A DNA stretch of 64,000 nt from Blasia pusilla (taxonomy: Eukaryota), in the NCBI GenBank assembly GCA_050084515.1, contig CM114271.1:42594001-42658000 (forward strand), in the 5' to 3' direction. The position numbers and the translations under genes were made by a program. Positions 1-43,183 of this stretch are shown piece after piece. Within the stretch, counting starts at the first letter, position 1. Each line of letters opens with the position of its first letter. The notes under the pieces are model-generated. The model saw nothing but the letters and a program-made list of their open reading frames with translations, was not told the DNA's origin and made no database searches.

Positions 1-3000
1 GTACCCCCCAACGTCATAACATCAGAAGCTGAAAATAAAGGAGTGCGGTACACAACGGTGGCTGCCCCCAACAATGTGCTCGACACATGCCCCTCCTGAG
101 AATCAACAATAGGAGTCGTCGTATTAGCTTCTCCCATCGCCCTCCGTGCCTACACACCAACAACATCACCAACTCTTAAGGAACTTTGATGGGGACCCAT
201 CGATGGGGTCCTCATCGCTTCGGACAATGTGAAAGACTAAGGAAGCCTAGTCTGTTTTCTAGCTTCCCCTCGCTATGGATCCAACTCTGCGGCTGCTCCG
301 CACGTCACAACTACGGCGGCCTCCAGCTGGGCAACCCCGCACATCCAACCTGGATCCTCCAGATCTCTAGCTGCTCCATATGATGTCGATGCCACGGATC
401 CGGCATCGGGTAACCTCAATGCCATAGCGGCAATCTGCTCTTGTAGCTGTTGTATCTGAGCAGCCATCCCAGCCTCACGTCCAGCGTCTCCCTCGGCGCG
501 TCTAGGTGGTGGTACTCTACCTCCTCCATGGGCAGCTCCACCACCCTATTGGGCAACTCCAGCTCCTCGTCCCCCAACGGGACCACCTGGTGCACGATCT
601 CTAGGCCCACCCGGACCGACTACTCGCTCTAGTGCCCTCTCTGGCCATTGGTCCGAATGTAATCAGGATGTAAACTGAAACACCTGGCGCATGTGTGATC
701 ATACCTCTGACAATAGTCACACTGATAACCTCCTGGTGCAGCACCATCTCCTCCTCTATGCTGAGGCATATATCCATGACCCTGACGAGTGCAATGGCGC
801 TGATGATGGGCTCCACCACATGACCAACAAGTAATAGTAGGCGGCTGTTGTTAAGCCGCATATGAAGGCGCAGGTCTCTGTGGCATCGCCTTTTGGTATC
901 CTCCCTGAGCTCGTGGTGCCATAGTCAACCTATCTCGGAGTCCATGTTGCTACACTCGTGGTGCAGACAATCGTGACTGCTCTCGCCCAGAACCCATGGT
1001 GGCTACGCTCTCCTCCGCCATATTGCGCTCAATGTTCTCAACGGTCCGAAAAACATCTCTCAACGTAGGGGAGGTGTCCATAAGAAGCACCCTTCCCGCA
1101 CCCGTGGCTGCGGGGTCAAGTCTAGCATCGCGTACCATGACTGGATAGCCTGAGCCTTTGTCACCCCCTGAGTGACGTTGATCAACCGGCGCAAGCGAGT
1201 GTAAGCCTCACGTAAACTCTCACCTGGGCGCCTCTAGAAGTTGTGGATGCTCCGCAACTTTTCCGTCCGTACGCCTTGGTAGCAAAGAACTCAACCACGG
1301 GGTTGAACCTGGGACGAACCCGACTAGACGGTGTAACTGCTCCAGTGCGAGTGACCCCTCCTAAAACATCACTAGTGGAAGAGGAAGTAGCCTCTCCTGA
1401 CTCCTCCTCATCTGGGAATGGCTCCGTCCATGACACATAGTGTGGGTCGTAGTAGGGTCGCCATGCCTCAATCTCCTGGGCATATCTGTGGGAAACTCAT
1501 GGTAATCGTCCATGGGTGCCCCCTCTAAATGTTGGAACATACCATTCCATGCTGTAAACGGGTTAAACTCTCTAGAGTTCCTGGCCCGCTCGGAGCCGCA
1601 CCAACTCCTAAACTCTGCTATGAAATCATGCAACTCAATCGTACCTACTGCACCTGAAAACCTACGCGGTCCTCTATCCCAGTTGTCCATCTCGTACGCC
1701 CAACTGGTAGGACCACTCACAATGTGTGGCGATGTGATCACAAATTTCTCTACACCCTCCCCCTCGTCTGACAATGACACAGAAGGAGGTCGAGGTGGTC
1801 CCTGAAGTGAAGACCCTTGGAACCTCACGCCACTCCGCGTAAAACCTCTAGAGCTACTCTCGGGTTCACCACCTCGCCTCTCAAAGTCCCGAACGGACGC
1901 CGTGATGACCCTCGTGCCCTTCTCACCCGATCACTCTTGCCTCGCGAGTAATCCCTCAATCACTCATCCCAAACATGCGGCACTCGATCTACACTCTCCC
2001 TCCCCGAGACATGTAACGTGCGGCAATAAGCGGCGTGGTGCGACAAATCGACGAGGCTATCATCTCATCGACAACCTACCCTCAACTCCGGACATCCCAC
2101 ACAAGTCTATGTCCCCTAAATCACATACATAAATGATGCTCTCAGCATCCACACACCCAATATCCCCAAATAAACTACCCAAATCCCAGAATCCATCAGA
2201 CGTGCAGGGTAAAGGACCAGAATGGGTAACCTAAACACATGTCGATGTCGCTCCTCAGCAACTGCAAATCTCGACCCCAACTCGGTCATGCAGAAAACTC
2301 TTCCAATCAGCAAGTCATACTCCCCCCGTACTGACGTTGCTTAAAACTCCTCGATGGTGCAGTTCCAGCGGAACGATGCGGCCTTGCAGGCAGCACGGAA
2401 CGGCTACGAACGGCACGGCCCTCGATGATGGGATGCGGCACTCGGCGGCATACCCTCCTCAATCAACAATAAACCCACACTCTGCTCCACAATGCCGGAG
2501 CGGCTCCGCGATCAAGAGAGTGCGGTGCGGCCACGAGCGGCACGGCGCGGCAATCGGTGGCGCGTTGCGGCTATGAGCGTCACGGCACGATACCCGGTCG
2601 TCGTTGAGCGGCTACCAATCACAATATAGCAGCAGGAAATCAAAACTCAAACACTATAACAGGAGGTCATATGCCATCACAGGTTGATGACGGTGATGGT
2701 TGACCATTGATGGTGAAAGTTGACCGTTGACGGTTGACGGTGACGGCCGCCGCCAGTGTGGCGGCTGGTTTAGGGTTTGCACAATTTTACCCTAAAAATT
2801 GCCTAGCAATGGCAATTTTGCAAGATTGACCATAACTTTTTGCTTGCAACTCCAAATTGTGCATTGTTTGTTGCACAGCGTGCACAACTTTACGATCTAG
2901 GCCAACATCAAAAAATATTTGGAATCGGACATTCCAGTAAAAACTGACAGGGACTGTTGTAAAGCCCAATGTCTCTTTCTTCTACCCAACATTCGGCAGC

Positions 3001-3809
3001 GCTTCCGCGCCGATTCCTCCCAACAAAAATGTAAAACCTGTAAAAATGCAAATCAGCAAGCAACATGGTGCTCTTAAAAGCACCAGCATGGGGCAACCTG
3101 CCCCCATACCCAATCCCTATTAGAAATTGGGCAGCGCTTCCGCGCGCCACTCTTCCACACGAAAAATCGGCAAATTCAAAGAACAGTCCAAGCAACCCTT
3201 GCTCCGATGAGCACTCCCATGAGTCGTTGAACGGGGAACACGGTCCCCAACCTGCAAAAACAACGAGTGACCAGCAAGCTCCCCCATGAAGCTCTCTCAC
3301 TCTCGCATTCTCGCATTCTCTCATTCTCTCTTTGTAAAGTAAGATCCAATCTCTCTCTACACAATCTCACACGATAGCTCTCAAAGGTGTGCACTCTCTC
3401 TCATGTCAAACCGAACCCACTCTCCTAATGAGAGGCTTGGGTTACACTCACCAGGCAAGGGACCATAGCTCCGCCGCCTCATGCCAAGAGGTTCAACAAA
3501 GAGAGAATGAGCTCTCAAGCTCTCTCTCCTTGGGATATATACCCCTCCCCTCTCCCAAGCTCTCTCCATGGTAACCTATTCTCCCAAGTCACCTCTTTGG
3601 CTCTTGACCTGATGTAGGAGGTAAAGGGCCACTTACCAAAAATAGAAAGTTCTTTAATATGGCTCCAAATGAGCCAAAACGAAGGGGAAACCTGCTCTCT
3701 CAGGTTTCCCGGGGCCTCAGCAGGTCATCCTCGACCTCCTAGGCCTGTCCTCCACTACTCTTGAAGACGCTCTACTAGATCTCATCGATCTATCCTAAAG
3801 GACGTGACA
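1..3809 (-). mobile_element. Degenerate Ty3/Gypsy LTR retrotransposon, 5' part (copy A: terminal repeat, leader, gag); continues off the left edge; same family group as the element at 19554-29053
   Basis: Minus strand begins TGTCACGTCC at 3809. ORF 1361-1828 (GPRRFSGAVGTIELHDFIAEFRSWC...FQHLEGAPMDDYHEF) and ORF 273-467 (STSYG...AQLEAAVVVT...ELDP) align by eye with gag-region peptides at 21600-21830 and 22536-22730. Positions 1-60 encode TPLFSASDVMTLG, matching SPLFSATELMALG at about 22920. Many frameshifts and stops. Confidence 0.85.
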
Positions 3810-6800
3810 GGTGCCCTCTCTAGCCCTCGGTCCAGACGTAACTCAGGATGTAAGCTGAAACACCTAGTGCGTGTGTGACAGTACCTCTCACAATAGTCAT
3901 ACTGATAACCTCCCGGTGTAGCACCATCTCTTCCTCCATGTTGAGGAAAACGTCCATAACCCTAACGGCTGCAATCGCGTTGGTGATGGGCTCCACCGCA
4001 TGCCCAACAAATAATACCTGGCGGCTACTGTTGTTGTTGCGCTGCAGATGATGGCACAGGTCTCTTTGGCACATGCTCTTGATAACCTCCATGTGCTCGT
4101 GGTGCCCGAGTCCTCTCTTGAAATCCACATTGCTGTACTGGTGGTGCATATACTCGTAGCTGCTCTCACCCATAACTCATAGTGGCTACGCTCTCCTCTG
4201 CCATGTTGCGCTCAATATTCTCGGCGGTCCTAAGAACATCTCTCAACGTGGGTGAGGTCTTTATAAGAAGCACCCCCTCCCGCACCGGTGTCCACAGGGT
4301 TTGGTCTAGCATCGCGTACTATGATTGGATAGCCCGGGCCTCTATCACCCCCTGAGTGACGTTAATCAACCTACGCAAGCGAGTGTAGGCCTCAAGAAAA
4401 ATCTCACCCGGGTGCCTCTCGAAGTCATGGATGCTCCACAACTTCTTCGTCCGTACCCCCTAGTAGCTCATCCTCAACTCCGCAAAGAACTCAACCATGG
4501 GGTTGAACCTAGGACGGACCTGATTGGACGGTGTAATTGCTTTAGTGTGAGTCACCCCTCCTAACACATCACTTACGGAAGAGGATGTGGCCTCTCCTGA
4601 CTCGTCCTCCTCATCGGCAAACAACTCAGTCCATGACACATAATGTGGGTCATAGTAGAGTCCCCATGCCTCAACGTCACAGGCATAACTGTGGGAGAAC
4701 TCATGGTAATCGTCCATGGATTCCCCCTCCAAATGGTGGAACGTGTCATTCCATGCTGTAAACGGGTTGAACTCTCTAGAGTTCTTAGCCCGCTGTGAGT
4801 CACACCAACTCCTAAACTCCCCAATGAAGGCTTGTAGCTCTATAGTGCCTACAACACCTGAAAACCTACGCGGTCCTCTATCCTCGTGGTCCATCTCGTA
4901 CGCCCAACTGGTAGGACCACTCAATGTGTGATGCGAATCACTAACACACTCCTCTACACTATCCCCCTCGTCTAAAGACAACACAGAAGGAGATCGAGGT
5001 GGTCTCTCACGTGGAGACCCTCGAAACCTTGCACCACTCCGGGTAAACCCTTCAGAGCTACTCTCAAGTCCACTACCTCGCCTCTGAAAATCCTGAACGG
5101 ACACCGTGATGACCCTCGTACCCCTCTCACACGATCACACTCAATCTTGTGAGTAATCCCTCAATCAGTCAAAGTAAACATGCGGCACTCAATCTACACT
5201 CTCTCACTGAGATGTGTGCTATGCGGCAACAAGCAACCTGGTGCAGCAAATCAACTGATCTTTTGTCTCATCGACAAACCATCCTCAACTCTAGACATCT
5301 CACACAGGTCTATGTCCCCTAAACCCATACATCATAAATGCTCTCAGCATCAACACGAAACCCAATATCCCAAATAACCTCCCAATATCCGAAAATCCCT
5401 AACACATGCGGGGCAAAAGACTAGAATGGGTAACCTGACAATAAATATCGATGTCTCTCCTCAGCAATTGCAAATCTCAACCCCAACTCGGTCGTAAAGA
5501 CAATTCTTCCAAATAGCATGTCGTACTCTCTTGGTACTGATGATGCTCAAATTTCCTCGATGTGCGGTGCAGGTCCACCAGTCCGGTGCGGTACTGGCGG
5601 CACGGAACGACTACAAACGGCACGGCACTCGGGAATAGAGTGTGGCACTCGGAGCCATACCCTCATTGGTCAACAAGACACAATCTGCTCCCAGTGATGG
5701 TGTGGCTCTGTGATCGAGACGGTGCTTTGCGGCCACAAGCGGCACGACGCAGAAATTGGCGGTGTGTTGCAGCTATGGGCGTCACGGCACAGTACTCGAT
5801 CGTCGTCGAGCGGCTACCAATCACAACATAGCAAAGTGGAAAATAAATTGTGACCCATGAATCCAAAAAGGTCACATTGTTAAAGTCACAAGTAAACGAG
5901 TGGCGATGATTCATACAGACTCACCAAATACGGCAGCGGCCGCCCTATCTAGCGATTGGTGACTCGTCATTGTCTTGAACAACGGCGGCGGCAGCGGCAA
6001 ATGGTGGTGGTGACAACTTAGGTCTGCAGCAACTCACGATAGCAGAAGCGGCAACTAACAGCGGCAACGGCAACAAACGGCGATGACAACAACAAGTGGC
6101 GGCGGCAGAGGCGATGGCAAAGGGCGGCGCATGCGGCGCCGCCAACGGCAGCGACTGGTTTAGGGTTTGGAGATTTTTACCCTAAAACTTGGCAATTTAA
6201 AAAATTGGCCACAACTGTCTGTTCGCAGCTCCAATTTGCACATCGTGTGTTGCACAACGTGCACAGCTTCACGATGTACGATAGCGTCAAAAAATATTTT
6301 GAATCAAACGTTCCAATAAAAACTGACAGGGACTGTTGTAAAGCCCAACGTCTCTTTCTCCTACACAAAATTCGGCAGCGCTTCCGCGCTGATTTCTCCA
6401 AAAAAAATGTAGAACCTCTGAAAACACAAATCAGCAAGCTACATGGTGCTCCCAAGAGGGCAACCCGCTCCCATACTCAATTCCTATCATAAATTGGGCA
6501 ACGCTTCCGTGTGCCACTCTCCCGTACAAAAATCTGCAAAGAAAAATAGTAAACTCGCATGCCTCTTGCTCCAGTGAGCACTCCCATGAGCCATGAAGCA
6601 GGGAACACAATCCCCCAACCTGCAACACACATCGAGCAACCAGCGAGCTCCCCCATGAAGCTCTCTCACTCACTCATTCTCTCTTTGTAAAATAAGATCC
6701 AATCTCTCTCAACACCATAGCTCTCAAATGTGTGCACTCTCACATGTCTCTCTCAATGTCAAACCAAACCCACTCTCCTAATGAGAGGCTTGAGTTACAC

Positions 6801-7182
6801 TCACAAGGCAAGGGACCATAGCTCCGCCGCCTTCTACTCTCAAACTCTCTCTCTCTCTCTGTCTTGGAGGTATATCCCCTTCCCTCTCCCAAGCTCACTC
6901 CTCGGTAACCTATGCTTGCAGGTCACCTCCTTGGCTCTTGACCTGCTGTAGCGGGTCAAGGACTACTTCCCAAAGTGAAAAGTCAACTATACTAAAAATA
7001 GAAACTTACTTGAAATAGTAAGTTTCTCCATATGACTCCAAATGAGCCGAAACAAAGGGGAAACCTGCTCTCTCAAGTTACCCATGGCCTCAACACGTCA
7101 TCCTCAACCTCCCGAGAATGTCCTCCAGTATCTCCAAAGGGGCTATAGTAGATCTTGCTGATTTATCCTAAAAACCGTGGCA
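3810..7182 (-). mobile_element. Degenerate Ty3/Gypsy LTR retrotransposon, 5' part (copy B), interrupted inside gag by copy A
   Basis: 3810-7182 is a colinear diverged repeat of about 632-3809. The minus-strand terminus is TGCCACGG at 7182. ORF 4460-5104 (GPRRFSGVVGTIELQAFIGEFRSWCD...FHHLEGESMDDYHEF) is the gag homologue. Homology stops abruptly at 3810, next to the terminus of copy A. Confidence 0.85.
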
Positions 7183-9364: not shown

Positions 9365-10598
9365 TTATCATAACTAAGACCTTCTTCTTTATTTCATTTT
9401 CTTTCTTTCTAAAAATATTAGGAATTTTGATTATTTTTCTTTCATCCATGCCATGGGCTACTAAACCAGTTTTAGACTCAACCCAAATCTTCTACTCGCA
9501 AAACTCAAGGCCATGGTCTCTTTATGGTCTAGCAAGGAGTCGGAGTGGAGCTCTAGAAAAATTCTATGGGACGGGCGATTGGATTGGTCTTTTAGACTTG
9601 ACGCAAGTCCTCTACTCATAGAAGTGAAGGTCGAGTTCTCTTCTTCAAATATCCACTTTATTATAAAATAAACCTCAAAAGACGACAAAGAAAGGTAATA
9701 ACATCTCAAAAGAGGAGTCAAAAAATGCAGAATGGAATGCAAAGAGAAACTGGCAACTAGCCAATGCAAACACCGACTCAACGAGCTACACGATTGATAG
9801 CCTGAAACAAATCTGACAAGAACACGAGTGGTTGGTCAGACGTGAACGGACCACGAGGCGAGCAACCCCCACCACCTCCGCACGATCTATCAATGCCAAG
9901 ACTTGTGCACGTTGTAAGGCTAGTGAGATGCATTGCCAAAAATAAGTAGTAACTACAGAGAGAGAAGGACTACGAGAAGGGGCAAAGTGATAATTCTCGA
10001 GGGAGTGGTGAACACATGTTTTCAGGAAAGTATCAAAATACACATATAAATGACCGAATACTTCCAGTGCAAAAGGAATAAATCCATCAATTGCATATCT
10101 CACAACATAACTTAACTCCTTGATTCTTGCTGCAACTTCGGCCGCCGAACTTTTGGTATATACGGCTCGACATACCAAATCAACACATCTTGGATCAGCA
10201 ACCACCACATCACCTGGTGTCCGGAATCCACCTCGACACATAACAAGATCAACTCTCCGACGAGAGGTTTCTTGTGTGGTTGAAGATAGGACATAGAGAT
10301 GATTTGCCCAATAATTTTATCATAACTAAGACCTTCTTCTTTATTTAATTTTCTTTCTTTTTAAAAATATTAGAGAATTTTGATTTTTTTTCTTTCATGC
10401 ATCTCATGGGCCACGAAACCAGTTTTAGACTCGACCCAACTCTTCTACTTGCAAAACTCAAGGCCATGATCTCTTTATGGTCTAGCAAGGAGTCGATGTG
10501 GAGCTCTACAAAAATTCTATGGAACCGGCAATTCGGTAAGTCTTTTAGACTTAACGCAAGTCTTTTACTCGTAGAACTCAAGGTCGAGTTATCTTCTT
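9365..10598 (+). repeat. ~280-bp diverged direct repeats (9365-9645 and 10317-10598) flanking a LINE fragment; built partly from a ~115-bp subunit that recurs at about 10815-10895
   Basis: Both copies begin TTATCATAACTAAGACCTTCTTCTTTATTT and end AAGGTCGAGTT(C/A)TCTTCTT. The subunit begins TTTTAGACTC... Confidence 0.85.
9646..10312 (-). mobile_element. 5'-truncated copy (3' end) of the CRE-like non-LTR retrotransposon
   Basis: Colinear with 54652-55312. ORF 9786-10241 (DVVVADP...KELSY...FIPFALEVFG...ISLALQR) is the C-terminal endonuclease region. AATAAA is present on the minus strand near the 3' end. Confidence 0.85.
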
Positions 10599-18072: not shown

Positions 18073-19553
18073 TGTCGCGCCAGGCTCGCACATAGCCACT
18101 CCCGCCAGGTCTCCGCAAAAAGTGACCAGTGAAAAGTACGTAAACATCCAATCGCAGACACTCGTATGACAACAGCCACGAGCGCGAGAGACATCCCGGA
18201 GTCCGGGGTCGAGAATCGCTTTAACGAGGCCACTAGCTTAATCACTGCGCGCATCGTCGTCACTTACAGCGTAATTACCGACTCACACTCCCCTCGCATT
18301 CACGATAAACGCGATCGACAAGATTCGCACGCCAAATTGTTGCTGATCAATCGCGCCTTCTCCTACTCCACTCTCCATCCCGCTCCCCGCCGAACTCATC
18401 GCCCCGCCTTCCGCATCATCTCCTCACCATCTTCTCGCGAATTAGCGACAATAATGCATCCACTCACTCGAATTGCGCTCGCTGCCAACAACAAGAAACT
18501 CTTTCTCCCTCTCTCTCTCTCTCCCCCTCACAACTGGGCACCCCTTTCCTCCCCTAGGCCCCGCTGCGCTGTCTGGCTGGCGCGTCTCGAGTCGGCAGCA
18601 AGCGGAAAAGCGGACACATGACGCCTACTTCCGTCTACCTCAGTTAATCCGCGGAGGGAGTAGTTACCCAGTTGGCGCGTCCGGAGGCGCGGTGTGCAAG
18701 CAGACGTGGAGACGCGATATTCCGCGCTTCGCCAGGTAACTCCGTAAGTGAGTCCAGCGTGGAGTTACCGAGCCATACCGACGGGGGATCTACTAGCCGG
18801 TACTGTACCGAGCATTATAATTGCCTGGACGAGTCGACCCTCTACAGACAGTGTTACCTGCGTACGGCTTCGGAGCCGTCGATCGGAGTGACGTGGGAGG
18901 ACTACGAGTCGTCATCCGATCAGGTGTACGTGTCAACCTTCCGCCGTAGCGAATGCAAGGGGCCGTATCATTCATTTCTTTGGCCATCTTAACGCCTTAA
19001 CACCTTTTTGGTTTTTATTTTAAGTCATCGGTGTCATCCACATAATATACATATATTTTTATATAATTGAAAGAGGATGGAGTTTGAAGAACACGTGTCA
19101 TGGTTCTCTTATCATGACACATGTATTTTTTGGCTTCGTCCGGTGATGACACATGTCATCTTTAACAAAAGAATTAGTGGATTATCACATACACTTAAAA
19201 TCATAAATTTAATTAATATAATTCCCATAGGTATTTTCATTTTCAACCGGGCATTATGCTAGTATTTATTATATATCAATATGTCTTAGTATGAACCCCA
19301 CTGAAATGATAAAATATTTTTGAAAAGAATTTATTTCCATATGTCAAACGAAGGAATAGCCTCTATATTACTAGCAAGAACCATTGGACAAAACATTCAT
19401 AATCCCATTTTTCCTTCACCATGAAAATAGGTACTTGACTTCCCTAGAATATTCTCTTTTCCACACCATTAGAACCAATTAGTTATTTAACATTGAAATA
19501 GTACACATATTATTGTTGCAAATGGAGCTATCTCAATTTTTCATTGTGATGTC

Positions 19554-19921
19554 TGTCATGACCATACGGATTCTGTCGTAGAGTATAGTGTGCTAGTAGA
19601 GGCCATACCTTATGTAGGGCCGCAGTGTCTAGGTAGAGATGCGATTTCATACATAGGGTTGGGGGTTATTCAGTTGAGGGTGACTTTTCCAATAGGGCCC
19701 GCTCTTAGGTTGGAGGATATAAGGTGGAGTGCACTCAAAGAACAGTCAGTTCTTTGAGTTGAGCATGTTGCGTTGGGAGTTAGCCTTGGTAGTGAGTAGA
19801 GCTCTTGGTTATGGTGTTTCCCGCAAGCTTCGACCTAGATTCTCCCATCGTGGAGTGGGTTTGGCTCGATTGTATGTGATTCTATATGTGTTTTATGACA
19901 GTAGGTCTTTCACAGATTTCA
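19554..19921 (+). repeat. Terminal repeat segment A1 (promoter/R/U5-like part of the LTR)
   Basis: Near-identical to 28584-28947 (about four substitutions and one small indel cluster by eye). Begins TG, ends TTTCA, and contains TATAA at 19718. Confidence 0.95.
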
Positions 19922-19933
19922 CTCAAAGAACTG
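19718..19933 (+). promoter_or_regulatory. LTR TATA box, predicted transcript 5' end (about 19747) and self-complementary primer-binding site (19921-19933)
   Basis: TATAA at 19718-19722. CAGTTCTTTGAGT at 19747-19759 is the exact reverse complement of ACTCAAAGAACTG at 19921-19933, which starts at the last base of A1. No TGG-initiated tRNA PBS abuts the repeat end. Confidence 0.7.
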
Positions 19934-21434
19934 GAGTAGATCGATCGTAGCTTTGATTGTAGGTCAGTAGGATCTAGTTAGGGCTGATTGTGTACTCATC
20001 CGTGGATGTTCGTGGCTTGTGGCCTATGTTGGAGGTAGGAATATGGTGCGTGGATGGCTGGGAAAGAAGCGCCTTTTTGAGAGCTTTCCGACGTGCTTTA
20101 GATCGCCGGATTTCGTCAAGGGAGTTGGAAGTTATCAAGGATTGAAGATTCTGGTTCGTGTTCGACGGTTTTCTGATGAGGAGAGCTTGGAGTGCGGAAG
20201 CTTTGTTGAAGTTCATCCAGATCGGGTGAGAGGTTCATGTTGCTACTTGTATTGTGATCTCATGTGAAACTATCTGCTTAAGTGTGTGGAGCGTTGCGGA
20301 TTTCTGCGTGCATGAAATTGGGCGGAAGCACTGTCGGATTTGCGATTCTGGAGGTGTATGGACAGCAAGTTTGTCTGATTTTTAGCTCGGAGTACAGAGC
20401 TTGGTTGTAGCTGATTTTTTGTGGAGAGATAGCTATGGTGGTAAATTGAATTTTGGTTGAAATAGATTCAATTTTGGTTGAGGATTTGTGGAGTAATTGC
20501 TGATCGAAATTTTGCAAACTCGCTCAAGGTCTGGGCTATGGTGGACAGCGGATCGGAGGGGCTGGTTGGTTGTTGACTCTTTCATTGTTGGAGATGCCTA
20601 TACCGTTGGGGGCGCCCTGGTTGGGCCTCTCTCCATAGCGAAGCATGGCGAAGCGTGGCGATAGGGGCGATAGGGGCATGTCTCGAGGCTTCGAGGCAAC
20701 TCGAGGTAGCTCGGGGCGAGTGGGCGTGAGAGGCGGAGTAAGGAGCAAGGAGCAAGCAAGCAAGCTTGCTTGCTTGGGCGTAGGGCAATTTTTGCAGGAT
20801 TTTTGATTTGAGTGTTGCATAACTGGTCACCCATCTTTGGGCTATTCTGCCTGGAAGACGCTTAACTGCAGAGTTCTTAACTATGCCAGTGTACACACTT
20901 GTGTAGCTCATTTGGTACTGTTCGGAGAGGTGTTAGGCGCTTTATGCATCTCAGGTTTTTGGTTGATGGACCTCTAGTGCATAGTACGGTGTAGCCTCTC
21001 CATGCAGGTGATATTTTCAGGTGTTGCGAGTTCGACTAGCACATCATTGACCCGCGGCGGAGTAGCTATTGCGTTAAAATTGTGTGGTGGGTTTTGTGGA
21101 TTCAGGGGGTGCCACATTTGTGGATTGTGTAACCTTGATTGCCATTTGCGATTGGAGGGTTGTCGTTGGACTTCCTATGTTTGGATCCCCTCCATCGTTG
21201 CTTCTTGCTTGCGCGCCCATTGTTAGGGTTGACGCTGATTTCCAGAGCAGTGTTACTCCTGTGTGCTACCGGTAGTGAGGCTTGAGTGATGACCAGTAGA
21301 CCGTGGGAGGCTTCTAGTGGTGATGATAGGTTAGGTTGCCTACATCCATAGTTAATAGAGCTAGAATAGTATAGCGACATCGACGTCACTTGGTTACTTA
21401 GTGGTGATAATTTGGTGGTGGTGCGGTATCGGCG

Positions 21435-22960
21435 TTGGTCATCACGGAGTTGTCGCGTGGTCAGGTTGGGGACCGTGGTGCGGACAGTGGTGGTTTCACA
21501 TGGAGTGGATTTAGGTATCGGCTACCTTTTCCACTTCCAACGGTTGATGTAGAGGAGGACGAGGGTGTTCCAAACACCGAGTCTTCTACGTTGTTATCGA
21601 GTGTTGCAGCTCCATTGATTTGGGACATGGACGGGATATATGGGGCCATGAAGGGCCCACGATGATACTCGGGTGCAGTGGGCACCATTGAGTTGGAGGA
21701 CTTCATGCAAGAGTTTGATACGTGGTGTGATATGCAGATGTTGCGGAACGCCACTTTGTTTACACCCTTCTTGGCTTGGAAGGGGTTGTTTCAGCACTTG
21801 GAGGGACCACCCATGGATGATTACCATGAGTTTAGGAAGGACCGTGTTGCTCAGATTGAGGCGTGGAGACAATATTGGTCTTCATGCTATGTGTCTATCA
21901 CCCATGGTGGTATTGGTAGTAATGCTCCTACTATGCCAACCAGCCCGACGTTGAGTGGTACGAGTACGAGCCGGAGTGGGGGTACCAGTGGAGGTACCCA
22001 TGGAGGTACTAGTGGAGGTACTAGTGCCCCACCATCGTTTAGCCCGGTTGCAGAGTTCTTCAAGAGGTTGAAGAAGAACTATCAGGGAGTGAAGACAGAG
22101 AAGTTGAGGAGTCTTCAAGAATTTGAGCGAAAGACTGGTGAGAGTCTTCGTGAGGCATACACTCGTATGCGACGCTTGATTTCAGACCATTGCCTTCATT
22201 TGTTGCCCCGCAGCAAGGACAGTCATGTTGGACATGTGGAGGTGATCATGTTAGGAAGTTTTGTCCCCAAGAGGATGGGAGACGGACTTTGGAGGATGGG
22301 CCTCAGTCGGCCCCTACTCAGTATGATCATTGCGGGAGACCAGGTCATCCTCGAGAACGTTGCTTTGATCTTCATCCAGAGTTGAGATCAGGCCGCGGCC
22401 GTGGTGGAGTAGCTCCGAGAGGCCGAGGTGGTAGAGGTGGTAGGGGTGGTAGAGGTGGACCAGTGGTTGGAGAGCCTACGGTGGCTACCCCTACCACTAC
22501 GACAGAGTCAGCTATAGCTGCCAGATTGAGCTTGATTGGAGCAGAAGTTGGCTACTATGGCTGGTATCCAACATAGATCAAGTTCGGGAGCAAGGGCTTC
22601 CACCTCTTATGGAGGGGATGATCTCTCTTATATGGCGAGTGCAGCACAGGTTGAGGCATCGGCTGTAGTTACGAGAGGAGCCACTCGAGCGTCAGAGCCA
22701 CGTGGTGCTAGTGTAGAGTTGGACCCACAGAGGGGTGAGGCTGGGAGGCAAGCTAGGCTTCCCCAGTCATTCTTGTTGTCTGAGGTGCTTAGGACTCCAT
22801 CCATGGTTCCTATGCAGCCTATTGAGCCGACAGTGGGGATTGAGGCATCTACATCGCGTGTAGTAGACACGGATGCAAAGATCAAGACAAAGATTGCGGA
22901 TGGCAACTTCAGTGTTGGGATCCCCATTGTTTTCGGCCACGGAGCTGATGGCTTTAGGAG
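21435..22960 (+). pseudogene. Gag region with two CCHC zinc knuckles and an RGG-rich tract
   Basis: ORFs 21435-21665, 21678-22385, 22190-22576 and 22536-22964. Motifs: GESLREAYTR, CWTCGGDHVRKFC, (Y)DHCGRPGHPRERC and GRGGRGGRGGRGG. Confidence 0.85.
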
Positions 22961-23985: not shown

Positions 23986-24915
23986 GGCATTTGTGTGTTA
24001 GATCTCTTTGTGGGATTAGCACTAGTTTGGCTGTAGTGTTGCAGGCCGGTATTCCTGTGCGGAGATACGTGTATATGGAGCGAGATGAGACGGCCCAGAG
24101 AGTGTCATCCCGACATATTAGTCAGTTGATGCGGAGATATCCTGAGTTGTTGCCGCCATGAGCTATTCGTGGGTACCAACGTGCTTTGCCGTCACACATT
24201 GCATTGTTGGGCGCGCAGGACCTTGAGAGGGTTGGTCATGTGGATTTGGTGATTGCTGGATGGCCATGTCAGGGTCATACACGTGCTGGTCGTGGTGAGG
24301 GATTACACGACCCTAGGTCTCGATTGTTTTGGGAGATGTTACGGGTGTTACGACATCTTAAGGTTCATCAGGCACGTGCTCCAGCTTACATTCTGGAGAA
24401 TGTTCCATTTTTGGGTGACACTCGGACCCGGATGATGGCGAGTGTTCATGAGGCGCGGTCTTGGATTGGACCAGCGGTGTTGTTAGATGTAGCGCAAGTT
24501 GGCTCGCGTGCACATCGTCCACGCTTGTGGTGGACAAACTTGTTGCCTAGGGAGGTTCTACGTCGAGCATATGATGCAGTGCAGCAGGATCCTTGCCTTA
24601 CAGTGGATAGTATATTGGATAATGGGTGACTTTCTCAGGTGGTGAGGGTTATTGATCAATCACCCATGGTAGTGGTAAACCGTGTGGGCCAGCCTAGGAT
24701 GGCACTACCCACATTTGTGAGTTTTCCCTCGTCACAAGCATACAGGGAAGGTGATCTCGGGCTTGTATGGGATTCTCATGTGTGACAGTTGGTGGAGCCT
24801 AACGTTGATGAGAGAGAGCGTGCAATGGGATTTACTACTGGTGTGACAGCGGTTGCTTCCATTTCTGAGGCTTCACGACGTCATGTGTTGGATCAGGCCA
24901 TGGACCTGAATTGTT
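23986..24915 (+). pseudogene. DNA cytosine-5 methyltransferase domain (DNMT3-like) inside the retrotransposon polyprotein
   Basis: Motifs appear in order: I VLDLF-(frameshift)-GI at about 23995-24018; II YVYMERD; IV DLVIAGWPCQG (PCQ at 24264-24272); VI YILENV (ENV at 24396-24404); VIII AHRPRLWWTNL (about 24510); IX ERERAMGF; X RRHVL(D)QAMD (about 24876-24905). Three in-frame stops. Confidence 0.92.
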
Positions 24916-26289: not shown

Positions 26290-26600
26290 CGCCCATTTCA
26301 ATTACACACCGATTGGAGTAGGTTGGGACTTGGAGCGGTGTTGACACAACATGATGATGAGCACATGGAGTTTGTGGTGGCCTATGCAAGTCGTTCAAGA
26401 ATGCATGAGTCGCTATAGTTCATATGAGGGAGAGTGCTTGGCAATAGTGTGGGCTGTGGCACACTTTAGGTGTTACTTGTTTGGCACACAGTTTACCCTT
26501 GTTACTGATCACCAGCCGCTCAAGTGGTTGATGGAGTCTGACAAGCTTACAGGGAAGCTTGCATAGTGGGCTCTTATCTTACAGGAGTATGACTTCCAGG
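26290..26600 (+). pseudogene. RNase H (Ty3/Gypsy)
   Basis: FQLHTDWS..GLGAVL, VAYASR, YSSYEGECLAIVWAV..F..YL.G..FTLVTDHQPL; frameshift near 26400. Confidence 0.92.
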
Positions 26601-27039
26601 TGGTACATAGACTTGGAGTTGCCAACCTTGATGGTGATGGGTTGATTGGGAACCCCTGTACTAGCCAAGAGGATACAACTGGGGCTAGATGGCATGGCGA
26701 GGTTTATGAGGAGATGGTGCCAGGTTGGCATGCATCCGCCTTTTTATGTTGGTTAGGGATGGACTCTAGTATGGAGGACCACATGATATCTTACTCTAAT
26801 CAGAGGGTAGATGGCCAGCCTTCAGATCCTAAGGTTGGAGATGGTGGTACGGATCAGCGTGACATTCATGATGATGCGTTGGTGTTGGAGTTCCTACGGA
26901 CTAGTAGAATGCCGGGCATAGTGAGTGCCAAGGAGCCAGACCGTGTTCTTCAACGTGCTAAGAGGTATCGATTGGAGGGAACACATATTCTCCGTGTGCG
27001 GGAGGATGGTAGAGTACGAGTAGTGCCGCATTTGGCTCA

Positions 27040-28110
27040 GAGAGAGCACATTGTGCGACATGCCCATGAGGAGTTGGGACATTTTGGGGTAAAGCGTACA
27101 TATAGCTTACTCCTTGGTCAGTATTGGTGGCGTGGCATGCATACTCAGGTGCAGCAGTTGGTGTCATGTTGTATGGTTTGTGACCGGGTGAGGGCATCAT
27201 TCAATGCCCCTACACCACAGTTACACCCCTTGCCTATTATGGGGTTGGGTTACCGTTGGAGTGTGGACTTTGCGGGACCATTACCGTTGACTATACGACA
27301 TCATCGTTACGTGTTGGTGATGGTGGAGCACTTCTCCAAGTGGATTGAGTTGGTGGCATTACCTGACAAGGCAAGTGAGGGAAAGGCGTATGCGTTTCTT
27401 GATAGAGTGCTTAGTCATTTTGGTGCACCAGGTGAAGTTCTGACCGATCAGGGTACAGAGTTTCAGGGTGAGTTTTAGGTCTTGTGTGACAAGGCGTTGA
27501 TTGATCATTGGACCACGTCTTGAGATCATCCAGAGGCGGATGGTTTAGCTCAGCGTGTGGTTCAGACGGTGAAGAGGGCATTGCGCAAGTATGGCCTACA
27601 GAAGGGGCATCTTGGAGACTGGGATATTCAGTTGCCATGGTTAGCCATGGGATATAGGTTCAGTCGCCAAGCATCCTTGGCTTCCTTCTCACCTTATTTT
27701 CTATTATACGGCCGAGATCTAGACTTGCCAGTAGCAATTCGTCGGGAGTCTAGTGAGGTGGTGAACCTTGATGACCCATAGATGTGGATGAGAGTGTGTT
27801 CTCAGCGGGCAGAGCTCTTTCGGAGAGTTATGCCAACAGCCTTTGAGAATCTTGCCATTGCTCAACACAGGGATACGTTGCGGTATGCAACCATTCGGGG
27901 TGGAGGTTATCGACCATCGATTCGTAGGTTCCATATGGGGGACTATGTCTATTTGCAGCGGATTGCACCGACAACGTTGGATGTGACGCCAGGCCGCACT
28001 ATTTTACGAGTGCGCGAGGTGTTAGCTTCTGGAGTTCTCATGTTGGAGGGTCGTGATGGAGATGTTTGGAAGGACCATGTGCGTAATTGTGCGTCATGTC
28101 ATCTTCCAAA
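27040..28110 (+). pseudogene. DDE integrase
   Basis: HHCC zinc motif (HEELGH...CMVC), WSVDFAGPL, VEHFSKW, VLTDQGTEF, ADGLA(Q)R with the catalytic E changed to Q, and SPYFLLYGR. Confidence 0.92.
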
Positions 28111-28162
28111 TGTGAATGGTACTGTTGACCCAAGCTTAGCCATGATACGTGCTAGCTTGAGG

Positions 28163-28300
28163 TGCATGTTGTGTGGGTCTGCTGGTAACGCACCCCGTAT
28201 GTTGGTGTGTGATCGGTGTTCTAGGGGTTGGCACATTATGTGTTTGACTCCACGTATTGATGTTGTTCCTACTGGAAGGTGGGTTTGTCCTCGATGTACT
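28163..28300 (+). pseudogene. PHD finger (C4HC3) at the C-terminus of integrase
   Basis: CMLC-x11-CDRC-x4-HIMC-x12-WVCPRC at the end of ORF 27782-28303, followed by the terminal stop. Confidence 0.9.
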
Positions 28301-28454
28301 TAGGAGAGGTAGATGACTTGATCTTTGCATGATATGGATTACATAGATGTTCGACTAACGATGGGGCAACCTAGCACCCGGCCTTCTGATTTGTGCACCC
28401 AAGAAGGTGTATAGCATGTAGTAGATGTATAGGGCTACTTGGGAGTTAGAGGGA

Positions 28455-28477
28455 CCTAACCGGTTAGGGGGGCGAGT
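28455..28477 (+). promoter_or_regulatory. Polypurine tract preceded by a 14-bp palindrome
   Basis: CCTAACCGGTTAGG (28455-28468) overlaps AGGGGGGCGAG (28466-28476), immediately before TGTGG at 28478. Confidence 0.7.
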
Positions 28478-29053
28478 TGTGGTACACTTGTGTTTGTGGA
28501 TGCTCTCGTTTATGTTATGTATGTATGTGAGTATGGTATGTCAGCGATGTATGTTGTATGACGATGTGGATTCGCACGATAGCTGTCATGACCATATGGA
28601 TTCTGTCGTAGAGTATAGTGTGCTAGTAGAGGCCATACCTTATGTAGGGCCGCAGTGTCTAGGTAGAGATGCGATTTCATACATAGGGTTGGGGGTTACT
28701 CAGTTGAGGGTGACTTTTCCAATAGGGCCCGCTCTTAGGTTGGAGGATATAAGGTGGAGTGCACTCAAAGAACAGTCAGTTCTTTGAGTTGAGCATGTTG
28801 CGTTGGGAGTTAGCCTTGGTAGTGAGTAGAGCTCTTGGCTATGGTGTTTCCAAAGCCGACCTAGATTCTCCCATCGTGGAGTGGGTTTGGCTCGATTGTA
28901 TGTGATTCTATATGTGTTTTATGACAGTAGGTCTTTCACGGATTTCAGTTGTGGTACACTTGTGTTTGTGGATGCTCTCGTCTATGTTATGTATGTATGT
29001 GAGTATGGTATGTCAGCGATGTATGTTGTATGACGATGTGGATTCGCACGACA
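28478..29053 (+). repeat. 3' terminal repeat block B1 (28478-28581)-GC-A2 (28584-28947)-GT-B2 (28950-29053)
   Basis: B1 and B2 are 104 bp and differ at two positions. A2 matches A1 at the 5' end of the element. Confidence 0.95.
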
Positions 29054-30174
29054 TGTCATCTTCACAAAGCACATTTATTGTTCTTTTGATTCTCTTACTT
29101 GTTTCCCACAAAGATACTTCCTTCCATTAGCCTTGGAAGGAAAGAAAAGACTTGAGTTGGATTATTAAGACCTAACTAGTCGTAAGTCCCACAAGGTCAA
29201 ATACGCAAAGTTTTCCGCCCTTGTTTGGTATCCTATGCCTCCCTTATTTGCATCACAACTTCTTTGGTTAGCCTATCCATCAACCCTCCACCAATCTCCC
29301 CATATAACTCACCTTGTTGAAGTGCAGTCGCTAATTCATAGTAATTATTGAAAGAGTGTCCCACAAGATATTCAAGCTCACAACTATACATACCCCCAAA
29401 AAATAACATCATCAACTCCTAATTTCAAATGATGGTTGAGTACATCCTTGTTAGCCTCGTACAAACTCAATGACATGGTGACTTGTGATGAGTCTCATAG
29501 TTAATGTTGCCTTGTCTTGACTCCCCCTTGAATCTCTATTTCCTATATTTCATGTCTAAATGTCTCAAAATGCCATGTCTATATGTGTCCCTTCTTATGA
29601 CTAATCTCAAAGCTCCCCACTCATCTTGGCTACTTGTGGTGTCCTATCCGCCTCACCCCTTAACTTAACTTGAATCAAGACTTACTCCCCCGTATTCATT
29701 AATCGGCTAGTTAGTCATACTCCCTGCCCACAACCACATTATTTACCTCATATATCTTAAGAGAGTTTTAAGATGCACGTGAATGGTTCTTTTGATTATT
29801 TCTATGATATATGTATTGGCATCCCCATTCGTCTTGATTTCTCTTACTCTCAAAACCATATGCATATCATTGCCTTTGGATGACTTGAGGGAGCATTAGG
29901 CTCCTAACAATTCCCAAGTCTTGCAAGTAGACTTGTTTAGGTTTTCATTTGGCAATAACAATGAGGTTTCTTATCCCTTTGAATCATGATCATTATTCAA
30001 CTTTGATTTACCAAAAATCATAAATGTGTCAAACTTAATTAACTATTTGCAACAAGATTACCACCTTTTTCTCCTCTTCATTTTTTTGTTCATTATTGAG
30101 TATCCTAATTATATCTTTTTGGAAAAAAAAACTTTGGGATATCACTATTTATGATCTCAAATTAACCGAACTAT

Positions 30175-31152
30175 AGGGACCTCCGAAATCTACTATATTG
30201 GACTTCGTTCGGGTTTCGAATCCCAACGTTAAAACTCGTGATCCATTTCATGCCCTTCAGTCTCCCAATGGCACCCCAAAGTGGGGTTCGAATCCCAAGC
30301 ACTCTTGAGACCTTCTCCCTTACTAGTATTTATGGGGTTCTTTGCCCTCTCCCTAACTTTGGAGAAGAGACGTTCGTGCCCCTCTTTTTGGCCCTGAACC
30401 CAACTTCCCATGCAATAATTTTTGGGAATTTTCTGAGTCTGTGCTTGTGCGTTTGCTAAGATCTTTGGTGCGTTGGAACCGACTTTGCAGAAGCTTTGCA
30501 ATGCTATATTGGACTTTGTTCGGGTTTCGAATCCCAACGTCAAAACTCCCGATCCATTACATGCCCTTCGGTCTCCCAACGGCACCCCAAAGTGGGGTTT
30601 GAGTCCCAAGCACCCTTGGAGACCTTCCCCCTTACTAGTATTTATGGGGTTCTTTGCCCTCTCCCTAACTTTGGAGAAGAGAAGTCCGTGCCCCTCTTTT
30701 TGGCCCTCAACCCAACTCCCCATGCAATCATTTTTAGGAATTTTCTCAGTTTGTGCTTGTGAGTTTGCTAAGATCTTTGGGTGCGTTGGAACCAGCTTTG
30801 CATCAGCTTTGCGATGCTATCATAACTGTCCCAAATTCATCTTGGGACTAAAAATTATGGTCCAAATTATAATCACAATCCCAAGTGCTAATGACGTTCC
30901 AAATCCGGTTCTCACCTCTTTGGCAACCACTCTTCCTAAATTTGACTCCTCTCAAATCTTGGTTCACGTTTGGTTCAAGTTTCCTAGTCTTGACCATAGA
31001 CATATGAAACGCTCAACCTTGTTTGTGTCTCATCTTTTATGTCTCTTGCATCTCTTCCGAGAGACCACTCCAATGCGCAAGCCATCCTAGCATGAGCCTG
31101 CTAGAGTTCCGATGTTCCACATGGCGCTTGTTTGGTTATGAGGTTCACGACA
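30175..31152. repeat. LTR-like remnant with an internal ~311-bp tandem duplication (30193-30503 and 30504-30820)
   Basis: CTATATTGGACTT(C/T)GTTCGGGTTTCGAATCCCAACG recurs at 30193 and 30504. 30858-31152 is homologous to 8458-8743 and ends TCACGACA. Confidence 0.75.
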
Positions 31153-41184: not shown

Positions 41185-42902
41185 TGCGCGGATATTCCGG
41201 TAGAAAATCGCGTTCCAGCAACATAAGACAGCGCCGCTCCACGGCGGATCACGCTCCCACACTCAACAATTCAGCTACGATCGGCACTCGGGAAGCACGC
41301 CACCGACATCGTAAACACCTCGGCAGCGACTCCGAAGTTCCCGCGGACAACCGAAATTGGTTCCCAGACGAAAACGCACTCGGCTAGCGGAAATAACCGA
41401 TTCTTGTCTACCTCAGACAACAAAGTCGAGGCACGACAATTAATACCACGCGACGGCGAGTCGCCCCTCAAGACACAATGTGCTCGTACTTGAACAGCAA
41501 TCGAGCGAACAGTGGCTCGATCAGGAACAAGGATATCTTAACAGTACACGGGCAGCCCACGGCGATTCCAGTCTCGTAGTCTTCCTCCTCCGCACGCACC
41601 TACCTATACGCCTGCGTACATATATATACAAATATTTACATCTATATGAGTGTATGTTGCAGGGGACACCCTTGGTGATGGTGCCTGCCTGCGTGCGCGA
41701 TGATCAGACCTCGGCGCCACGGAATCATGAAATGAATGCGGTAGAGAATAGTCAATCCAGTGAGCGCAGCGTAAGCCCTTTCTCCTCCCCGCGCAACGGA
41801 CGACGGTTCTTCATCGTCTACAATCCAGCGCCGTGCGGGTCAATGGCGGGTCGCGCTCGCTTCTGTCGTCCGTCCATTGGTGCTTCGCCGAACGAACGAA
41901 TTATTCCTCCTCTCAGTCGCCAGAAATCAGACACACAGGCAGCAGAGAGAACAAGAGCGAGCGCTTCCCCGTCCCCGGCCGTGCAATTAAACTCTACCCT
42001 CTCGCCATTCGCGAAACCTAAAAGCCAACTCTGCTGTCAGTGCCGGCATCCCGCATCCCGTTGGGATCGGCTCTCTCTCTCCCCGTCTTTCGCTCGCTCG
42101 CGGTCGGGACTCTGGAGCAAGCCGCACAAGGAAGGAGTGGCGCAAGAATCGTCGCGTGGAGCGAGGGAGTACTTATGGCGCAGACATCGCGAAAGCTCGA
42201 AGTTGCGATGCGCTTGGCTGCGGCTGCGCTGCGGTGCATTATTTATTCCACCCGCCCGACACACTGTCAGGGTCGGAGGGTGAAGGTCTGGACGGCCGTC
42301 ATGAGGTGCAGGAACTCGCGCAGGACGGGACGGTCCGAGAGAGAGACTCAGGGAGAGGTGGTCTCGATTCCTGAAATCGCATCGGGATTTGAACGGCTCC
42401 GCGTGCGAATTCTGCGGTCGTTCGATCTTTTCGTCACTCTGCACCTCGCTCCTCTGGGCACATGAGGATTCCCATGCCGAATGTCGCCCGCGCCTCCGTC
42501 CGTCGCAGCTTTTCAGTCAGGCTTCTGCGGTGGTTAAACCTTTCTTTCTCCCCTTTTCCTTTTCCCTCCTCTTTCGTTCATTCATTCTTTTTTCGTCCCC
42601 GGCTTTTCGATCGCATTTCCACCGCCGCATCGACCGCATCGTCCCCGAAATGCCTTCTATGATTGGCGCCTTCTCATGACGCTGTACACCGATCTTGCAA
42701 AGGAAGTGCACCTCGACTCAATCCCATCCTCCCTCCCTCCCTCCCTCCATCCATTCGTTCGTTCGTCCGCCCGCTCCGTCCGCAATGCAGTCTCCCGCTT
42801 AATCCGTCGCTTGATTCCTCACGCGAGGAATCCCTCTTCGCTCGTATCGAAGCCCGCCCATTTCTCCCGAGATCAACGCGGGCTCCACCATGCATTATTA
42901 GT

Positions 42903-43183
42903 CGATTTCTTTTTCATTTTCTTTTCACACTTGGGAAACTTTGTTTTCGCAACACGGACTATTAGTGCGAGCATAGCACCACACTAGTCCTTTAATTGAT
43001 TTCCTTTTCTTTTTCTTCTCACACTTGGGAAACTTTGTTTTCGCAACACGGACTATTACTGCGAGCGTAGCACCCCACCAGGCCTTTAATTGATTTCCTT
43101 TTCTTTTTCTTTTCACACCTGGGAAACTTGGTTTTCGCAACACGGACTATTGGTGCGAGCATAGCACCACACTAGTCCTTTAA
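42903..43183. repeat. Tandem repeat, three copies of a 94-bp unit
   Basis: CACAC(T/C)TGGGAAACTT(T/G)GTTTTCGCAACACGGACTATT..TGCGAGC.TAGCACC recurs at 42926, 43020 and 43114. Confidence 0.9.

Follow-up and report, generated by a model that had tools for sequence, protein, structure and literature searches.

A 64,000-nucleotide (nt) stretch of the Blasia pusilla genome (NCBI GenBank assembly GCA_050084515.1, contig CM114271.1, positions 42,594,001 to 42,658,000 of the forward strand; hereafter the window) carries a degenerate Ty3/gypsy-type retrotransposon with a cytosine-methyltransferase domain and a PHD finger. This element is probably self-priming, with reverse transcription initiated as in Tf1, the retrotransposon of Schizosaccharomyces pombe. 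A sequence-only reading of the window had proposed such self-priming, and the proposal is supported by covariation between two groups of relatives and by the exact position of the complementary site at the boundary of the first repeat. As judged from sequence, Tf1-like self-priming is well supported but unproven.

The site after repeat A1

The element is flanked by the tetranucleotide TGTC and has two kinds of repeats, A and B. Its layout from left to right is TGTC, A1, the putative primer-binding site (PBS), the coding region, a polypurine tract, B1, the dinucleotide GC, A2, B2, and TGTC. The features related to priming are all found in or next to A1, which comprises the presumed start of the terminally redundant region of the RNA (R) and the unique 5' region (U5):

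19554..19921, + strand: repeat A1, starting with TGTCATG and ending with TTTCA, with a TATA box, the presumed R start, and U5; 98-99% identical to 28584-28947
19718..19722, + strand: TATAA box, by direct reading
19733..19743, + strand: upstream direct copy of the PBS core (ACTCAAAGAAC), able to form an 11-bp hairpin with 19749-19759
19747..19759, + strand: putative self-primer (CAGTTCTTTGAGT), predicted to form the 5'-terminal 13 nt of the transcript; exact complement of 19921-19933
19921..19933, + strand: putative PBS (ACTCAAAGAACTG), its first base being the last base of A1; based on complementarity, control windows, and the minimum-free-energy (MFE) fold

Direct reading of the window confirmed the central observations of the earlier reading. 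The 13 nt at 19921-19933 are the exact reverse complement of those at 19747-19759, and this complement begins 29 nt past the first base of the TATAA box. It was also right that no tRNA-type site adjoins the repeat: no site complementary to the CCA end of a tRNA (TGG type) is present directly after A1, since the nearest TGG (19931-19933) is 9 nt away. The earlier reading further held that self-priming fixes the true end of the long terminal repeat (LTR) at 19921. This position stands, and on independent grounds, as 19921 is the last base common to A1 and A2 when the repeats are compared with each other; what does not stand is the classical LTR, because A is one half of a split repeat. The second copy of the PBS core is also present, and the hairpin that it can form with 19749-19759 has a 5-nt loop (span, 19733-19759), but the idea that this hairpin masks the 3' copy of the primer is speculation.

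The match exceeds the controls. Allowing at most one mismatch, we counted five occurrences of the PBS pattern in the window, always within the two A copies or at the PBS, versus 0.14 expected; none of 100 shuffles reached five. The longest exact complement to A1 was at most 9 nt in 113 control windows (26 nt each, tiled downstream), versus 13 nt at the PBS. A published survey of plant elements defined self-priming by a complement of at least 10 bp starting 0 to 5 bp after the 5' LTR (PMC6317226). By comparison, the pairing covers 13 bp from the last base of A1 in the window, 17 bp in one relative (L002), and 15 bp in two others (L041 and L076).

In the mechanism that we propose, transcription would start around 30 nt past the TATA box in A, at or near 19747, and the first ~13 nt of the RNA (CAGUUCUUUGAGU) would fold back onto 19921-19933. 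The RNase H of the element would cut the RNA at the end of this duplex, and the freed RNA 3' end would be extended through U5 and R to give minus-strand strong-stop DNA. The identity between A1 and A2 ends at 19921, which by the logic of LTR formation makes it the boundary between U5 and the primer, so that the 3' end of the primer would have to pair from 19921/19922 on. The sequence at this point has no initial TGG and is complementary to the element's own repeat, at a distance from a TATA box that is usual for transcription starts. Plus-strand synthesis would then copy the primer, and the PBS would be rewritten from the R start in every cycle. Such renewal would lead to perfect complementarity across diverged lineages and to one-sided decay in dead copies. 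The upstream partner of the hairpin occurs solely in RNA reaching beyond the start on its 5' side, which is the A2 copy. It can be speculated that the A2 hairpin, a feature of the first of the two groups described below, keeps the 3' primer copy from competing for the PBS.

Pairing in related elements and transcription

We searched for relatives with the open reading frame (ORF) that encodes the reverse transcriptase (RT) and RNase H of the element. This ORF was aligned with 18 homologues, and the alignment was used to scan a metagenome collection, giving 599 pattern matches and 562 confirmed relatives, of which the best 80 were analysed (L001-L080). When the 47 loci with a length of 6 kb or more were each compared with themselves, 10 had a pair of 290-340-nt repeats, 8.4-9.9 kb apart, and BLAST with the A-plus-PBS region added more left ends. 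Single-protein scans of viral contigs with RT and gag gave no relative; the alignment scan of these contigs gave three distant loci (L081-L083). Two groups could be compared at the site after A. In group 1 (L002, L004, L006, L008, L017, and L051), the RT is 70-85% identical to that of the window. L002 and L006 share their flank and are therefore one locus, so the group 1 alignment of seven sequences, window included, represents six distinct loci. Group 2 (RT 42-48% identical to the window) has 16 loci, 15 of which were aligned; L062 was left out since its coordinates and flanks duplicate those of L060. Homologues of the methyltransferase ORF were identified by tblastn in 6/6 group 1 and 14/15 group 2 loci, and the C-terminal ORF with the PHD finger was matched in 6/6 and 10/15, respectively. 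Pfam detected no methyltransferase in the decayed ORFs of L041 and L076, but tblastn with the ORF of the window did find the homologue.

Each group carries the complement of its own post-A sequence. In group 1 this sequence is ACTCAAAGAACTATGTT (starting with ACTCAAAGAACT), and in L002 and L006 it forms a 17-bp duplex with AACATAGTTCTTTGAGT, located 176 nt before the end of A. L051 has 16 Watson-Crick pairs and one G-U pair, while L017 and L004 have 13 and 12 pairs, respectively. The window differs from L002, L006, and L051 at the thirteenth pair, and it does so on both sides: the pair is C-G in the window and U-A in the others. The post-A sequence of group 2 is AATTCTAGAAAAACT. Its complement, AGTTTTTCTAGAATT, sits 127-129 nt before the end of A and 31-32 nt after the TATA box (TATAAAAGG). 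Out of 15 positions, two loci have 15 Watson-Crick pairs (L041 and L076), five have 14, six have 13, one has 12, and one has 10 (L063). The geometry is the same in both groups, with pairing that starts 0-3 nt before the end of A and a complement 26-32 nt past the TATA box. Side-by-side reading revealed that the PBS of the two groups differ by around four substitutions and a 2-nt indel, each of them mirrored in the R start. The sequence-only reading had named covariation across family members as a check on self-priming; we found it between the groups and in the single C-G/U-A exchange of group 1, but not within group 2.

Other comparisons agree with this pairing. In group 2, 92% of the cells were paired in register, versus 36-64% when the partner was slid by 1-3 columns. 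RNAalifold, applied to the alignment with flanks, recovered the helix between the R start and the PBS unprompted, with four more pairs. In an exact-match test of nine loci, five exceeded every control window. The MFE fold of the predicted R-U5-PBS RNA pairs its 5' end with the PBS in the window (19747-19940), L002, and L041; the z-scores against shuffles were -2.7 for L002 and -4.1 for L041, values that describe the total fold energy and not this pairing. The left arm of the hairpin is kept in six of the seven group 1 sequences (it is deleted in L008), and group 2 has no such arm. A scan for 11-mer stems over 53 loci found the pairs between PBS and R and otherwise scattered low-complexity matches, with no third self-priming group among these loci. 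L002 (1933-1943) and L006 (4341-4351) have a second complement of the PBS core (TTCTTTGAGTG), situated 84 nt upstream of the end of A and without a counterpart in the window.

To this we added transcription data. We mapped to 19300-20500 two raw-read RNA runs with the same species label (X22 and X23), a DNA contig set, and a further set that came from another organism. As many as 28,821 DNA contig pieces fit this 1.2-kb stretch at an identity of at least 85%, so the family is much repeated. The first mates of the RNA reads lie on the minus strand, which corresponds to sense RNA given the usual stranded libraries. RNA depth was 90-210 over 19546-19791, 28 and 14 at 19915-19955, and 11-45 in the leader, and sense reads of both runs extend from A across 19921 into the leader. 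Reads that enter A from the left carry the end of B in 125 (X22) and 157 (X23) cases, versus the flank in 5. They therefore derive from the B1-A2 context, and no transcription from outside covers the upstream part of A1. These reads are compatible with a promoter inside A and do not set the start position. Such reads of the 3' copy (B to A2) make up most of the depth in A, a background against which a 19747 start would stay below the reporting threshold. None of the 40 majority differences listed (out of 255) is located in 19733-19759 or 19921-19933, a result uninformative for minor variants. In a few RNA reads (4 in X22 and 9 in X23), 19871 is followed by 19583, a 289-nt backward jump within A that is absent from the DNA contigs.

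Several of these results weigh against self-priming. The sole start pile reported, with 30 molecules in X22 and none in X23, is at 19715. This position precedes the predicted start by 32 nt and the TATAA box by 3 nt. A transcript beginning at 19715 would carry the local hairpin, a competitor of the PBS. The fold of the window has a weak z-score (-1.59). Mismatches or a deleted R start are found in L008, L004, and L063, with L008 lacking the R-start segment. In the exact-match test, L008, L030, and L039 had no long exact match, and that of L065 (10 nt) was below the control maximum of 11. Finally, covariation within group 2 was not significant against 500 shuffles, since the copies are decayed. 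Its two-sided change is limited to one pair (G-C to A-U in L039 and L064), reached by 80 of the 500 shuffles, and its percentage of pairing was reached by 277 of them, since the columns hardly vary. Such a result would be expected of dead copies whose differences date from after their insertion.

Coding content and split repeats

The domains and repeats of the element place it in the streptophyte "Gypsy-DNMT3" (KnitGypsy-Dnmt3) kind, a lineage named in a 2026 preprint (bioRxiv 10.64898/2026.05.21.726589). Stop-to-stop ORFs between the repeat copies were scanned against Pfam, and 6 of the 10 ORFs gave matches. The regions identified were as follows:

21666..22576, + strand: gag region with broken ORFs, its translation showing a CCHC-type knuckle; weak Retrotrans_gag match of 17.6 bits, below the Pfam cut-off of 24.1
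24162..24629, + strand: fragment of a C-5 cytosine DNA methyltransferase domain in pol; PF00145, E value of 9e-11, 42.2 bits
25182..26418, + strand: RT and RNase H, in two frames, broken; RVT_1, RT_RNaseH_2, and RT_RNaseH
26567..27478, + strand: integrase, zinc-binding domain and DDE core; PF17921 (Integrase_H2C2) and PF00665 (rve)
27782..28303, + strand: C-terminal region with a PHD finger (28160-28303), in the position of the chromodomain of chromoviruses; PF00628, E value of 3.6e-10

The methyltransferase domain sits between gag/protease and RT, and is followed by RT, RNase H, and integrase, which is the Gypsy order. After the integrase, the PHD finger replaces the chromodomain, and the Pfam scan of the ORFs of the element gave no chromodomain at the integrase C terminus, where this domain is a hallmark of the Tf1/sushi group. 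The Pfam results did not include a tyrosine recombinase either; the integrase domains rve and Integrase_H2C2 were found instead. The reading frames are broken, and the copy in the window is therefore dead. A long leader of 1.7 kb (19934-21665) separates the PBS from the first gag-like ORF.

The ORF for RT and RNase H had 134 protein matches at an E value of at most 1e-10 among 1463 candidates. Its best named matches are from liverworts (77-80% identity), including Calypogeia fissa (78%) and Marchantia polymorpha (80%), and the M. polymorpha protein also carries PF00145. Proteins of Klebsormidium nitens are 50-55% identical (E values of 4e-55 to 5e-36), one of them with PF00145, and those of Chara braunii are ~44% identical. 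The nearest matches beyond the family (42-48% identity) include chromodomain-bearing and fungal or animal elements.

The ends of the element and its 3' repeats are given below:

19550..19553, + strand: left copy of the target-site duplication (TGTC), the same 4 nt as after B2
28466..28475, + strand: polypurine tract (AGGGGGGCGA) directly before B1, by direct reading
28476..28581, + strand: repeat B1, 106 nt, ending with CACGATA (CACGACA in B2 and in relatives); 99% identical to 28948-29053
28582..28583, + strand: 2-nt spacer (GC) between the end of B1 and the start of A2, by direct reading
28584..28947, + strand: repeat A2, with a second TATAA, the hairpin, and a copy of the primer (28777-28789); from the A1/A2 comparison
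28948..29053, + strand: repeat B2, adjoining A2, whose final CACGACA is the right end of the element; 99% identical to B1
29054..29057, + strand: right copy of the target-site duplication (TGTC), by direct reading

A1 and A2 differ by a small indel near 19822-19830. The TGTCATG at the start of A is conserved in relatives and mirrors TGTCGTG, the reverse complement of the CACGACA at the end of B, so the element has inverted termini of the TG..CA type. The polypurine tract precedes B1 and not A2. We compared this architecture in the nine elements with both ends visible, namely, that of the window and eight related loci. A G-rich polypurine tract is found directly 5' of B1 in 8 of the 9 (L041 was not assessable), the sequence is compatible with a 2-nt spacer between B1 and A2 in 8 (L039 was unclear), and A2 adjoins B2 in all 9. 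The 4-bp duplication is perfect in five elements (TGTC, AAGG, CCAC, TTTA, and ATGT), matches at 3 of 4 nt in three, and is absent in one.

The tally of A and B matches revealed the full A..B-A-B arrangement in 8 loci and its 3' part (B-A-B) in 10, so that the A-coding-B-A-B layout is present, in full or as a 3' part, in 18 related loci. Two further loci look like A..B-A-B, with B2 mostly deleted or ended by the contig end. Four others (L017, L064, L076, and L078) have A..B without a second A or B, and in six more (L032, L044, L058, L071, L072, and L074) B is followed by more than 1 kb without A. The relatives with A...B only have 1-8 kb of further sequence past B, with no second A-B. These copies may be either a second product of integration or the outcome of recombination between B1 and B2. 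None of the ~20 readable left A copies is preceded by B.

Given that the polypurine tract lies 5' of B1 and the PBS 3' of A1, linear DNA produced by ordinary reverse transcription would carry B-NN-A at either end. The copies that are integrated start with A and end with B instead, and B-NN-A is found only internally, where its CA-NN-TG resembles a stored circle junction. By these landmarks, the repeat of reverse transcription (polypurine tract/B-NN-A/PBS) and the repeat used by the integrase (TGTCATG..A/B..CACGACA) appear as circular permutations of each other. Since the ~20 readable integrated copies never start with B, cutting by the integrase at the internal B-NN-A is suggested. We tentatively put forward a joint scheme, which has less in its favour than self-priming itself. 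In this scheme, the DDE integrase would cut the internal B-NN-A of a circular or end-joined intermediate, giving A-internal-B-NN-A-B, and obligatory junction-directed integration would go together with self-priming and with masking of the 3' primer copy by the hairpin. Cutting of linear or one-repeat forms could yield the A-internal-B copies that are also seen, and recombination between B1 and B2 could equally do so. The permuted repeat architecture is a more unusual feature than self-priming.

Elsewhere in the window, we identified other repeats. Two units of ~3.2 kb are in tandem at 663-7182 (76-85% identical), and 9397-10598 and 54643-55165 share repeats of 230-300 nt (84-88% identity), probably another repeat family. 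Tandem repeats were also found at 30193-30780 (period of ~311 nt, two units, 91-94% identical) and at 42898-43188 (period of 94 nt, three units, 90-91% identical).

Alternative explanations and known elements

The alternative that survives best, although an unlikely one, is that the complementarity is a structural RNA stem closing R-U5, implicated in packaging, dimerisation, or genome cyclisation, with something else as the real primer. What the comparisons support is the helix as a pairing; moreover, the primer sequence of group 1 also has a local partner at 19733-19743, and with a start at the 19715 pile it would be internal to the RNA. Yet the pairing begins exactly where A1 ends, which is by definition the boundary between U5 and the primer, and no other candidate primer site adjoins A in either group. 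The complement also lies at TATA +26 to +32 in both groups.

The second alternative, for which we see little room, is replication as in DIRS elements, with the A2 hairpin or the B1-A2 junction acting as primer or splint and the post-A complement as a by-product. It is suggested by the A1...B1-A2-B2 layout, which DIRS/PAT-type elements also have (PMC5890265, Fig. 4 legend). The window element nonetheless encodes a DDE integrase instead of a tyrosine recombinase and has 4-bp target duplications, its polypurine tract before B1 and PBS after A1 are landmarks of the retroviral type, and the hairpin is missing from group 2. DIRS, PAT, and Ngaro elements code for a tyrosine recombinase and are not known to generate target duplications. 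The element resembles them in the order A1-internal-B1-A2-B2 and in an internal B1-A2 junction that reproduces the joined ends of the element, and it is unlike them in the DDE integrase, the TG..CA-type inverted termini, and the 4-bp duplications.

Marginally less probable still is priming by a fragment of a host tRNA (half-tRNAs, the type found in copia, Osser, or Bianca elements) or by another small host RNA whose resemblance to the LTR sequence is fortuitous. Half-tRNA priming does exist in plant Ty1/copia lineages (PMC6317226). Against it, the PBS does not begin with TGG, and the distance from A to the nearest TGG varies, from 9 nt in the window to ~20 nt in L002. The two groups also have different PBS, each matched in its own A, and a host RNA would not make the LTR covary. 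ARAGORN gave no tRNA genes for comparison in the window and in 40 loci. A TGG-containing motif (GGAGTAG), conserved in group 1 at 10-20 nt after A, was weighed as a possible tRNA site and discarded, since it does not adjoin the repeat and lies at a variable distance from the end of A. Finally, although both PBS have an A/T-rich, partly palindromic sequence (TTCTAGAA in group 2) that makes a self-match more likely, a chance match or a functionless inherited palindrome is very improbable given that no shuffle reached the observed count, that controls gave at most 9-11 nt versus 13-17 nt at the PBS, and that the geometry recurs in two diverged groups.

Self-priming has been described or predicted in several elements. 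Tf1 has, immediately 3' of its 5' repeat, a sequence that can pair with the first 11 nt of its transcript (PMC7175516). The window element is similar to Tf1/Tf2 of S. pombe in having a post-repeat site complementary to the presumed transcript start (13 nt versus 11 nt in Tf1), no TGG-type tRNA site adjoining the repeat, and the Ty3/gypsy gene order. It differs from them in its PHD finger in place of a chromodomain, its methyltransferase in pol, and its split A/B repeats, and in that the start site and the RNase H cut are only inferred here. Among plants, self-priming was the predicted mode in 12% of the LTR elements surveyed by Neumann et al. in 2019 and was the dominant PBS type in 83% of 1500 Tcn1 elements (mosses and club-mosses) and in 89% of 203 TAR copia elements (PMC6317226). 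Since it had already been predicted for these two lineages, self-priming is not novel in plants, and the window element joins the Tcn1 chromoviruses and the TAR Ty1/copia elements as a plant LTR retrotransposon predicted to self-prime by the same criterion. From Tcn1 elements, with their chromodomains, conventional LTRs, and 5-bp duplications, the window element differs in its PHD finger and methyltransferase, its split repeats, and its 4-bp duplication. Neither Marchantia, liverworts, nor Klebsormidium is mentioned in the main text of the survey (PMC6317226).

The closest described kind is KnitGypsy-Dnmt3 of K. nitens, reported to combine a DIRS-type repeat structure (A-coding-B-A-B) with Gypsy-like domains (de Mendoza et al. 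2018, PMC5890265). The window element shares with it the Gypsy-type pol with an embedded DNMT domain and the A-coding-B-A-B repeats, and differs in that its closest named relatives are the liverwort proteins (77-80%). The priming of the Gypsy-DNMT3 family appears to be undescribed in the main texts of PMC5890265 and bioRxiv 10.64898/2026.05.21.726589, in which the word "primer" does not occur; no other paper came up when full texts were searched for the name of this lineage. Within the literature searched, our results are a first indication of self-priming in a methyltransferase-bearing Gypsy lineage with split repeats.

Self-priming frees a retrotransposon from the need for a host tRNA. It would also escape host defences aimed at tRNA-type primer sites. 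If true, self-priming reaches beyond the Tf1/sushi-Tcn1 chromoviruses and TAR copia to the methyltransferase-bearing Gypsy elements of streptophytes. The little-studied Gypsy-DNMT3 family would gain its first replication landmarks: the PBS, the polypurine tract, the integrase ends, and the target duplication. According to these landmarks, the integrase uses ends other than those of the repeat that reverse transcription makes, raising the question of how split-repeat elements with a DDE integrase integrate.

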